From: a virus
Lineage: Duplodnaviria > Caudoviricetes
Direction: 5' to 3' (one strand)
Virus record (IMG/VR): IMGVR_UViG_3300027743_000007
Coordinates: 1 to 53,516 of that record
Length of the DNA: 53,516 nucleotides
The notes under the pieces were generated by a model that worked only from the letters and a program-made list of their open reading frames with translations, had not been told where the DNA came from and made no database searches. Positions 8,966 through 10,919 of the stretch are shown in pieces. The position numbers and the translations under genes were made by a program. The stretch's first letter is position 1. Each line of letters starts with the position of its first letter.

Positions 8966-9040
8966 GCCCTGCCATGCCGTGTCACGCCAAGCGATGCCGC
9001 GCACAGCATGGCCGTGCATGGCGGCGCCGCGCCTAGCGCG
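8966..9040 (-). repeat. Phased pentanucleotide array A (15 units, NN-GGC type)
   Basis: Intergenic; minus strand cgcgc taggc gcggc gccgc catgc acggc catgc tgtgc gcggc atcgc ttggc gtgac acggc atggc agggc. Confidence 0.85.
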
Positions 9041-9059
9041 GGAGCTTTGTGGTCGGCTA

Positions 9060-9719
9060 TCACGACCTCACCACGCTGGGTAGCAGCTCGGCGAGCCGAG
9101 CGAGAGCCTGAGCGGTCGCCTCGTCCTCGGGCACGTAGTCGGCCTCAATGGCGAGGATGATCTGCTCGGCGTGAAATCGCACCGACCACCCCGATGCCCG
9201 GCGATTCGCTTCCACCTGGCGTCGGGTGAGCTTGCCGCCGGCCTTATGGCGCAGGCTGCGCTTGATCATCACCGGCTTGCCCTCAGGGTCGAAGGCGGTG
9301 CGGGTAGCGCGCAGCTTGCCCAATACGTCGAGGTCAACGGCCAGTGCGCCAGCCAGCTGGTCAAGGTCGATGCCCAGCCCGTCGGCCAGCTCTAGACAGC
9401 GGGCCCGGTCGTACGGTTCGAGCGGCATTCCCTGACGGGCGTTGAGGGCGATCGCGTCGAGCAGCATGGCCGCGTCGTCGGCGTAGTCGTGCCACTCAAC
9501 CTCGACGGGCTGACCGGCGCGCAGCTTCCACGTGACCCGGTGGAACCCGTCGATCACCCGGCGCGATGCTCGGTCGGCTCTGACCGGCGGAAGCTGCTCA
9601 CCAACCGCAATGGCCTCGCCGATGCGGCGCAGGTTGACCGACGACAGGGCATGACGCGGGTACAGATTGAAGTCGAGCACCAGCGACTCGGCACTGACCA
9701 TCTCGGCGCGCCGAGTCAC
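9060..9719 (-). CDS. ParB/Srx-like N-terminal domain protein
   Basis: YPR...LPPV...VIDGFHRV and N..QG.PL motifs. Confidence 0.75.
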   Translation of the reverse strand: MTRRAEMVSAESLVLDFNLYPRHALSSVNLRRIGEAIAVGEQLPPVRADRASRRVIDGFHRVTWKLRAGQPVEVEWHDYADDAAMLLDAIALNARQGMPLEPYDRARCLELADGLGIDLDQLAGALAVDLDVLGKLRATRTAFDPEGKPVMIKRSLRHKAGGKLTRRQVEANRRASGWSVRFHAEQIILAIEADYVPEDEATAQALARLAELLPSVVRS

Positions 9720-9736
9720 TGGTGTTCCCTCGGCTT

Positions 9737-9836
9737 GCTGCGCCTGGCCCGGCCACGCCAGGCAAGGCCTAGCGCCGCCGCGGCACGGCTCGCCAGGCAA
9801 AGCATCGCCGCGCAATGCCCGGCCGCGCCGCGCAAG
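9737..9836 (-). repeat. Phased pentanucleotide array B (20 units)
   Basis: Intergenic; 5-nt periodicity without indels, GGC/TGC core. Confidence 0.88.
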
Positions 9837-9843
9837 GGTCTCA

Positions 9844-10389
9844 TCAGAGCACCTTGAATCGGCCGAATGGGCCGCCGCGCTCGGGCCGGTAGTCGCCCAC
9901 GCCCACGGTGCGACCGCCAATCTCCAGCAGCTCCCGAACGTGCGCGGCCGGAATGAACTCGGGGTCGTGCTCGAAGTGCACGGTGCCGGCCCACTCCTCG
10001 AAGCGGGGCCGCCCGCGCATGATGCCCTGCCGCTGCTGGACAACGCGACGTAGGTCTACGTCCCACTTCTCCAGCGGTTGTCCGTCGGGCAGCCGAAGCG
10101 ACGTCCACTCGTCAGCGACGAACAGCGCGCCCTTGACGATCGTGGTTGCCGCGATCTTCCCGATCCGTCGGCCCTTAGCAGCCGACAGTACGCACGCCCG
10201 AAACGCGACGGTCGGGTGGGCGATCACACCGGCGGGCGTCCGGTAGACGCGCATCTCGGCTTCGTCGTCCGGCGTCGGGATGACCTTGCGCCCGAGCCGC
10301 TCCGGCCCGCCGCTCGGGCGCATGGTCGAGAGGGGACTGCTCTGCAGCAGCGGCGAAGTGCCCTCAAGGTTGAACTCGATCAAATCCAT
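9844..10389 (-). CDS. Stand-alone RAMP (Cas7-like) protein, 181 aa
   Basis: N-terminal LEGTSPLL strand, HP..AFRA.V helix and C-terminal Gly-rich loop GGRTVGVGDYRPERGGPFGRF; AAGGAG RBS. Confidence 0.65.
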   Translation of the reverse strand: MDLIEFNLEGTSPLLQSSPLSTMRPSGGPERLGRKVIPTPDDEAEMRVYRTPAGVIAHPTVAFRACVLSAAKGRRIGKIAATTIVKGALFVADEWTSLRLPDGQPLEKWDVDLRRVVQQRQGIMRGRPRFEEWAGTVHFEHDPEFIPAAHVRELLEIGGRTVGVGDYRPERGGPFGRFKVL

Positions 10390-10413
10390 TCCGCTAGCTC
10401 CTTCTTTCGTGTG

Positions 10414-10513
10414 ACCTCGCCTTGCCATGCCAGGCACCGCCAAGCGCCGCATCGCCGTGCCCGGCACGGCCGTGCCTCGCCCCGGCCAGCCCGGCCGCGC
10501 CCAGCCGCGCCTC
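10414..10513 (-). repeat. Phased pentanucleotide array C (20 units)
   Basis: Intergenic, immediately upstream of the RAMP-like gene. Confidence 0.9.
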
Positions 10514-10535
10514 GTGCGCTCATCGAGTCACCCCG

Positions 10536-10610
10536 GCCTCGCCTTGCCCTGCCGCACCAGGCCGCGCCGCACCAGGCCGTGCCTAGCGCCGCGGCGCATC
10601 GCCTCGCCCC
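10536..10610 (-). repeat. Phased pentanucleotide array D (15 units)
   Basis: Intergenic; GGC/GGT cores with variable dinucleotides. Confidence 0.9.
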
Positions 10611-10619
10611 GGGCCGGTC

Positions 10620-10919
10620 TCATCGCGACATCTCCAGCAGCGCCTCGGCCCACCGGCGCCCGGCACTGGTGCCGCGCCACACTCGGATCGCGCCGCCCTT
10701 GCGGTGCGGGGCCGCCGAGCGCACCACGCCGCCGGTCCACTCGATCCGCCGGCGGCGGGCCGCGGTGTTGAACAGCGAGCCGATGGCGTTCTGGGCGGCG
10801 TTGGGCCCGTGGTCGCCGGCCACGGTCACCTGGCCGCTGCCGGTCACGTCGTCGGCGGTGAAGTCGTGGCCGGCCACGATCAGCTCGGCCAGCCGGCGCT
10901 CCAAGGTGGGTGTGCTCAC
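10620..10919 (-). CDS. Hypothetical protein
   Basis: GTGA-coupled ORF (FTADDV...IRVWRG). Confidence 0.6.
   Translation of the reverse strand: MSTPTLERRLAELIVAGHDFTADDVTGSGQVTVAGDHGPNAAQNAIGSLFNTAARRRRIEWTGGVVRSAAPHRKGGAIRVWRGTSAGRRWAEALLEMSR

Follow-up and report, generated by a model that had tools for sequence, protein, structure and literature searches.

A probable VIPR system with a ParB-like accessory gene and four pentamer arrays in a complete, uncultivated phage genome

In the genome of an uncultivated tailed phage (Duplodnaviria; Caudoviricetes), IMG/VR record IMGVR_UViG_3300027743_000007, we found a minus-strand locus at positions 8961-10615 that is very probably a VIPR (Viral Interference Programmable Repeat) system, located in the early operon of a complete temperate-type phage genome. 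The window that we analysed is the whole record, 53,516 nucleotides (nt), and the locus is made of a 181-amino-acid (aa) protein gene, here called vipr, a 219-aa ParB-like accessory gene and four arrays of 5-nt units, named D, C, B and A in the order of transcription. We assign it to the VIPR class because its features match those of the published systems, and the evidence consists of homology, fold, array anatomy, co-occurrence of arrays with the gene and synteny, each of them observed. The protein has the RAMP fold and its homologues are accompanied by arrays; as the computational tests that could have refuted the interpretation brought up nothing of the kind, the interpretation is supported. 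The original prediction, made from the letters alone, had proposed a non-CRISPR RNA-guided system around a RAMP protein and had likened it to viral systems of the VIPR type. Such systems are indeed described in two preprints (10.64898/2026.04.26.720920; 10.64898/2026.04.26.720927), the protein is a homologue of the Vipr protein of phage SUSP1, and the proposed reading is supported by homology (E=5e-24), modelled fold and flanking arrays. The locus is not categorically new, the class being already present in these preprints of April 2026. The record is probably outside the published VIPR census, and since that census was made on NCBI proteins and the window is an IMG/VR record, it has probably not been examined by the authors of those studies.

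The published VIPR systems combine a small ancestral RAMP protein, Vipr, with RNAs called vrRNAs, which carry YNNGG repeats (at least 4 units, typically 9-16) with hypervariable NN positions and a 3' tail; their loci have two genes, the accessory one being DNA-interacting, and are mostly viral or proviral (10.64898/2026.04.26.720920). Double-stranded DNA is read by the NN positions with one base skipped between them, and competing mobile elements, competing phages included, are transcriptionally repressed (10.64898/2026.04.26.720920). The characterised systems are those of Escherichia phage SUSP1 and of a Pseudomonas fulva prophage, which belong to type II among types I-VII (10.64898/2026.04.26.720920). 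Cryo-electron microscopy (PDB 36pp) showed one protomer per repeat, with GGY sequestered and NN presented (10.64898/2026.04.26.720927), and the resistance of SUSP1 to its satellite requires both vipr and vap1 (10.64898/2026.10.15.759431).

The vipr gene (9844-10389, minus strand), whose ATG start at 10389 is consistent with the N-termini of its homologues, encodes a predicted single-RRM RAMP with a G-loop (GVGDYRPERGGPFGRF) and a beta-hairpin thumb. Searching the PDB with phmmer gave one relevant entry, 36pp_D, 'SUSP1 Vipr protein' (E=7e-5, residues 63-179, the C-terminal G-loop included). In these alignments the single sequence resembles SUSP1 Vipr only weakly and in this part of the protein, and the full-length match (1-179 against 1-188, E=5e-24) was obtained only with a family profile made from the 181-aa protein and 19 metagenomic homologues. 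The protein also falls in phrog_4652 (E=1.4e-18), a family of unknown function, and found no match among the Pfam, PADLOC and Cas family hidden Markov models (HMMs). An AlphaFold2 model (pLDDT 90.4, pTM 0.85) contains an N-terminal strand (residues 2-10), a beta-hairpin (110-130) and the G-loop (159-178), so that the N-terminal strand and the C-terminal Gly-rich loop noticed in the original prediction are both present. Comparison of this model with the PDB by Foldseek, using a library that ends on 2026-04-08 and from which Vipr structures are absent, returned 40 matches at E<=1e-3, and among the matches listed at that level all were CRISPR RAMP complexes or subunits (Csm, Cmr, type VII). The best was Csm3/Cas7 of type III-A (6ifn_F, E=1.6e-5); Cmr and type VII Cas7 came next, and gRAMP reached 1.6e-3. 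The RAMP fold, suggested earlier as a point to check, is thus borne out by the model.

The residues with which SUSP1 Vipr contacts its RNA are largely kept. The window protein has R127 (equivalent to R138 of SUSP1 Vipr), D166 (D177), Y167 (W178) and R168 (R179), and it has also kept the DNA-clamp lysines K72 (K82) and K78 (K88). Four of the five residues of the GGY-contact set (H17, R138, D177, W178 and R179) are therefore represented, the equivalent of H17 being Ser17. Across 48 aligned rows, the R138 site holds Arg in 47, the D177 site Asp in 46 and Glu in 2, the R179 site Arg in all 48, and the W178 site is aromatic in all 48. With respect to its overall build, the protein resembles the Class 1 backbone subunits (Csm3/Cmr4/Cas7, types III and VII), which polymerise along guide RNA at a fixed step, in its RRM core, G-rich loop and thumb hairpin; the structural matches 6ifn_F, 6xn3_F and 8wfx_I (E ~2e-5) have query-normalised TM values of 0.47-0.52, and the value does not exceed 0.55 among the matches listed. 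It differs from these subunits in its low identity to them (10-16%), in matching no Cas family HMM, in a step of 5 nt against 6, and in belonging to a phage genome without CRISPR repeats, Cas1, Cas2, Cas10 or a large subunit.

The four arrays lie on the minus strand in the order D, a 22-nt gap, C, vipr, B, the ParB-like gene and A, followed by a RecE/YqaJ exonuclease gene; they are all found where they had been placed by the original prediction, in a tightly coupled operon as it had stated, the flanking genes being start/stop-coupled. Array D (10536-10615) has 15-17 in-phase NNGGY units (12/17 canonical NNGGY, 15/17 NNNGY), array C (10414-10513) 20-21 units (15/21 and 19/21), array B (9727-9836) 18-22 units (11/22 and 18/22) and array A (8961-9045) 14-18 units (8/18 and 14/18). 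Unit counts vary with where the degenerate ends are cut; the earlier counts of 15, 20, 20 and 15 for D, C, B and A fall within these ranges, including for C and D, although as exact values they hang on the cutting of the ends. The phase is free of insertions and deletions within all four arrays, and D and C differ in phase. Array D begins right behind the stop codon of an upstream 98-aa gene and ends with the conserved unit pair AAGGC, GAGGC. Array C ends with AAGGC, GAGGT and then CAC, immediately 5' of the vipr ribosome-binding site, and array B ends with AAGCC, GAGGG directly ahead of the GTG start of the ParB-like gene. A common AAGGC-RAGGK motif, often followed by CAC(C), closes arrays D, C and B as well as arrays of the related loci L009, L059, L060 and L012 (numbers with L denote loci of our collection), and a GATGAG box stands ahead of D, C and B. 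Array B is the most degenerate at the first G, and its units 10-11 have CC in place of GC. Array C has an internal GGGGC GAGGC, the same units that open array D. From this internal pair in C, and from the two CC units at the midpoint of B, it appears that these two longer arrays (20-22 units) may each encode two abutting vrRNAs.

The composition of the units, measured in 75 of them, agrees with the earlier description of an uninterrupted 5-nt period with a triplet that is mostly GGC and also TGC, CGC or GGT: position 3 is G in 71%, T in 17% and C in 11%; 91% have G at position 4, and 93% have C (97% C or T) at position 5. Relative entropy is near background at the two NN positions (0.09 and 0.12 bits) and rises to 0.53, 1.01 and 1.11 bits at the triplet positions. 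The NN strings are specific to each array, as had been noticed before, any pair having at most 6/15 NN units in common when set at its best in-phase offset. In the strongest run, 14 of 15 successive in-phase pentamers carry GC at positions 4-5; when the window was shuffled 200 times with its dinucleotides preserved, the highest count was 11. A weaker statistic, at least 8 of 10 pentamers, was attained by 16/100 shuffles, and the significance is therefore carried by the length of the run and not by the motif alone. A strict NNGGY scan of the 53.5-kb window found the four arrays and otherwise a single weak run of 7 units at 48446-48480 (score 5.0).

The association of arrays with the gene was seen again in its homologues. 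With tblastn we detected vipr in 32 phage records (25 Mycobacterium, 3 Gordonia, 3 Pseudomonas and 1 other), and NNGGY arrays stand beside the gene, on the same strand, in the 4/4 phage records examined (Brocalys, Ecliptus, LESphi2 and Pipp). Loci from GTDB genomes and IMG/VR have same-strand arrays in 9/11 cases, two of which (L006 and L011, both among the 11) are identical in sequence, and none at L008 and L014 at that threshold. Among the metagenome loci, 37/54 carry one or more arrays on the strand of the gene and 3 an array on the opposite strand; 17 lack arrays, many of these being short contigs of some 1-1.5 kb. The flanks of homologous genes thus show the 5-nt periodicity whose search had been proposed at the outset. 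A looser detector, which is blind to the strand because GC is its own complement, found arrays in 43/48 rows, among them the window and some duplicates. The arrangement [array] vipr [array(s)] ParB-like gene [array] is seen again in L009, L006, L010, L012 and L062. Loci of this kind can carry far more arrays than the window: in L060, whose Vipr is 53% identical, about 30 consecutive vrRNA-like arrays of 8-21 units each extend over 2.3 kb (L060:1694-3997), most of them ending in RAGGC-RAGGT, with spacers of about 12 nt (caccgNtcgtc) in between and the ParB-like gene behind the whole block.

It could be considered that the pentamers are nothing more than GC-rich intergenic filler or chance composition, and the protein an unrelated orphan of the CRISPR Cas7 family. 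The window has 71% G+C, and the frequency with which shuffles reach the weaker statistic fits this idea, to which we nevertheless give next to no probability: the 14/15 run compares with at most 11 in the shuffles, the arrays track the homologous gene across genomes of 42-73% G+C, the protein matches Vipr and no Cas family model, and the genome is without Cas1, Cas2 and CRISPR repeats. The latter agrees with the original prediction, which had pointed to the lack of CRISPR repeats and of cas1/cas2: searches for Cas1, Cas2, Rfam CRISPR repeats and repeat-spacer arrays found none in the whole phage genome.

The second gene of the locus, a vap-like accessory gene (9060-9719, minus strand), encodes 219 aa with a predicted ParB-N plus helix-turn-helix (HTH) fold and an invariant DGFHR where ParB has GERR. 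By sequence it matches the ParB-like family phrog_1033 weakly (E=3.5e-5). Pfam gave no match for the protein or its 16 homologues, PDB sequence searches returned nothing significant, and tblastn against 50,697 phage records found no match. Its AlphaFold2 model (pLDDT 87.6) was matched by Foldseek to pNOB8 ParB-N, CTP-bound ParB, Noc and KorB from E ~1e-5, with 24 matches at E<=1e-3 (5k5d, 7bnr, 7nfu, 6t1f and 8qa9 at E 1e-5 to 1e-4). As in ParB, Noc and KorB, an N-terminal ParB/Srx domain fold is followed by a helical HTH DNA-binding domain. Unlike in these proteins, the GERR box is replaced by D-G-F-x-R: in a weak profile alignment to Myxococcus xanthus ParB, DGFHR falls on the GERR box, D57, G58, F59 and R61 are invariant in 17 sequences, and the CTP-binding GERR box of clamp-forming ParB is absent from the aligned site, so that a CTP-clamp mechanism lacks motif support. 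The Pfam ParB_N model also missed this protein, whereas it recognises another protein of the phage, encoded at 18744-19544 on the plus strand, a separate gene for a canonical ParB_N protein with 31.3 bits in Pfam, above the cut-off, and with a match to phrog_723 (E=4.8e-38).

A profile search found the ParB-like gene adjoining vipr in 20 locus entries, window included, and in one more, L089, without a full Vipr open reading frame (ORF). We placed 86 distinct Vipr rows (from 107 ORF hits, after dropping those below 140 aa and duplicates) in a quick IQ-TREE phylogeny with SH-aLRT support and a midpoint root. All 13 rows that bear the ParB-like gene fall in a single clade of 18 (SH-aLRT 93), and none of the 68 rows outside it has the gene; three of the five rows of the clade without it are contigs that end at or just past vipr. 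The gene is absent from the mycobacteriophage/Gordonia clade and from the Pseudomonas-phage clade. The ParB-like gene marks one Vipr subclade, and from its modelled fold the protein could be a DNA-binding helper.

Taken together, the locus resembles the SUSP1 and P. fulva VIPR systems in having a single-RRM protein of about 180-200 aa with a G-loop, a thumb and, except for His17, the same RNA-contact residues; in same-strand tandem pentamers with a constant G-G-Y and variable NN; in several vrRNAs per locus, upstream and downstream of the genes, around a core of vipr and an accessory gene; and in being phage-borne near early or immunity genes, without a CRISPR array or adaptation genes. It differs from these two systems in that its arrays are interleaved between the two genes, and from the published range of 9-16 units in that its arrays reach 20-22. 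The accessory protein is ParB-like, and the word 'ParB' is absent from the main texts of 10.64898/2026.04.26.720920 and 10.64898/2026.10.15.759431; the gene may nevertheless correspond to one of the published vap1-6. In one published sub-architecture, hammerhead ribozymes stand between the vrRNAs (10.64898/2026.04.26.720920), unlike in the window, where no hammerhead was detected between the arrays: an Rfam search of 8700-10900 at E<=10 found no hammerhead and nothing relevant, and one of the whole window at the gathering score found no match.

If the locus works as the published systems do, its parts would be the Vipr protein, the ParB-like (Vap-type) accessory protein and four arrays for at least four vrRNAs. 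By homology to SUSP1 and P. fulva, transcription of the operon would include the arrays, cleavage would yield RNAs of about 70-110 nt, and on each RNA Vipr would form a polymer with one protomer for every pentamer. A protomer would flip out and hold G-G-Y while presenting the two variable bases. The filament would then bind double-stranded DNA that matches the NN string, one base being skipped between dinucleotides (a rule carried over to this clade from the characterised systems), and would repress transcription there. Competing phages, prophages or satellites are the likely targets, with the ParB-like protein possibly acting as a DNA-binding helper. As a role, the silencing of competitors is suggested only by homology with the published systems.

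Several points weigh against this interpretation. The triplet is degenerate, with canonical NNGGY in 46/78 units and in about half of the units of arrays A and B. At the site of His17, the residue by which SUSP1 Vipr recognises the first G, the window protein has Ser, so some of the locus may be in decay or obey a relaxed rule. Skipping of 1 nt is established for the SUSP1 and P. fulva systems and not for the clade of the window. Of a conserved 3' tail, only the short motif AAGGC-RAGGK-CAC was seen at the array ends, no search being aimed at a pseudoknot tail of the SUSP1 type. A scan of 8800-12200 detected 0 sigma-70-type promoters and 0 intrinsic terminators, the sequencing runs listed for the locus include no RNA run, and no convincing natural target was found in the searches made.

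Some of these points would also fit a VIPR locus in decay, in which function is left to the protein and perhaps to arrays C and D, while A and B are eroding relics that neither load nor guide Vipr. The canonical unit makes up 8/18 of A and 11/22 of B against 12/17 of D and 15/21 of C, His17 has become Ser, and no array has a target that we could find. We consider such decay unlikely. Positions 4-5 (G, then C or T) stay at 91-97% in all arrays while the first G relaxes, which argues for a shifted rule and not for random decay, and no insertion or deletion breaks the phase of any array. Furthermore, the arrays hold conserved positions in the synteny of the clade, and arrays with a relaxed first G occur elsewhere too (18/62 loci with a frequency of G at this position, G1, below 0.85). 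Repeats with alternative consensuses, namely NNNGG, YNNNG and NNNNG, have also been published (10.64898/2026.04.26.720920), the relaxed YNNNG form being one that part of the window's units fit, and 21 of 99 VIPR-like period-5 clusters were reported as non-canonical (10.64898/2026.10.21.760802).

We asked how the first G relates to the residue at the site of His17. The first G is present in 71% of the units in the window, against at least 94% in most loci whose Vipr bears His. Among 62 distinct loci with at least 15 units (25 of 87 loci, with fewer than 15, were dropped), this site is Asn, Ser or Gly in 32, and the relaxed arrays are distributed as 5/30 among His and 13/32 among non-His loci (Fisher p=0.051; Mann-Whitney p=0.11; neither corrected for relatedness). 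A relaxed first G is thus commoner where residue 17 is not His, as a trend only. An extreme array composition was seen in L043 (the same as L014 and L091; 42% G+C), where in the arrays near 3001-3528 the first triplet position is never G (0/43 units). Its Vipr has Trp at the thumb residue equivalent to R138 and Asn at residue 17, and at this locus pocket and repeat may have changed in concert.

The published criterion for natural targets is a match at no fewer than 80% of the NN positions, with scrambled guides as controls. In the large collections our searches used exact matches to parts of the guides, and mismatches were tolerated within the set of 110 loci. Exact xNN seeds of 10-11 units, four in number and each part of a guide, had 0 matches in IMG/VR, and one seed had 0 matches in an exact xNN search of metagenome contigs. 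A scan of 15 loci gave no target. Two candidates were considered and rejected. A 9-unit seed of array B had a single IMG/VR match, in L057, antisense within a tyrosine-integrase-like ORF; the match did not extend (25/44 overall), its skipped bases fall on codon position 1, and we estimate that about one such match is expected by chance. Units 2-13 of array D matched at 21/24 NN positions inside the array region of L094 (L094:1646-1681, in the scan of 110 loci; controls at most 18), a borderline match that we do not count as a target, with a rough chance estimate of 0.03-0.7. This borderline match recalls the published 'vrRNA-targeting vrRNAs'.

A scan for self-targets under the 1-nt-skip rule found none in the window, the best scores of 59-67% being the same as in shuffled-order controls; natural VIPR systems are described as likewise having no self-target (10.64898/2026.04.26.720920). 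This result bears on another possibility, that the system regulates the phage's own genes or the host, for example with Vipr on messenger RNA arrays controlling the translation of vap, recE and vipr. The 3' ends of arrays A and B (window 8956-9045 and 9719-9836) are purine-rich and Shine-Dalgarno-like, and stand 5 and 8 nt from the start codons of recE (an ATG) and of the ParB-like gene, respectively. They look like the ribosome-binding sites of these two genes, in which case the loading of Vipr on the polycistronic RNA could affect the translation of recE and of the ParB-like gene, and no external target was found in the searches made. However, regulation of this kind seems to us very improbable, given the lack of a self-target under the skip rule, the published natural targets, which are other mobile elements (10.64898/2026.04.26.720920; 10.64898/2026.10.15.759431), and the relatives that have separate ribosome-binding sites behind their arrays.

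A further reading would join the accessory gene with the relaxed repeat. We hypothesise that the ParB-like protein could define a distinct VIPR subtype, in which the Vipr filament nucleates or positions a ParB-family protein on the genome of a competitor, so that silencing would spread beyond the 30-60-bp footprint instead of merely blocking RNA polymerase. At the same time, with His17 lost, the first G would no longer be read, the code would be YNNNG, and the third variable base might carry information. As a whole, this combination is quite unlikely.

Regarding the genome around the VIPR locus, the record has direct terminal repeats and is rated 100% complete, with 53.5 kb and 71% G+C. The locus is part of a start/stop-coupled block on the minus strand that contains a serine integrase, a repressor-like HTH protein, an endonuclease, two small genes, the VIPR locus, RecE and RecT; YqaJ was the only Pfam or PADLOC match among Vipr, the accessory protein and their neighbours. 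For the portal and capsid proteins, identity to their counterparts in phages of Streptomyces, Arthrobacter, Microbacterium and Gordonia does not exceed 34%, and this resemblance to actinobacteriophages makes an actinobacterial host a possibility. Pieces of the locus (window 8900-10700), 100% identical, are present in contigs of two other studies, from freshwater sediment (about 1.4 kb in total) and soil (262 and 160 nt), so the phage recurs across samples. Far from the locus, a 1047-aa ORF (33120-36263), presumably encoding a tape-measure-type protein, contains tandem repeats of 132 nt (about 4 copies, 33658-34229) and of 114 nt (about 3 copies, 35739-36099).

The spacers between arrays were also considered in relatives. 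In L009, the closest IMG/VR relative, three of the four inter-array spacers (L009:4606-4930) have a hairpin with a GGTTCGA resembling a tRNA T-loop and then GGCGC, which might be a processing signal. ARAGORN detected no tRNA in these spacers and Rfam no match, and their fold z-scores are unremarkable (0.75 to -0.89). L007 gave only weak, chance-level matches in Rfam.

With VIPR, a new form of RNA-guided recognition of DNA has been described, from which CRISPR effector complexes are proposed to descend, and the locus adds a well-delimited example of it in a complete, uncultivated phage of 71% G+C. Its subclade is distinguished by a ParB-fold gene beside vipr and by arrays between and after both genes, and conservation of the repeat's first guanine is often lost in the window and in L009, its closest relative. 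These features provide material for two questions, namely how the pocket that reads the repeat and the repeat itself co-evolve, and what the accessory protein does.

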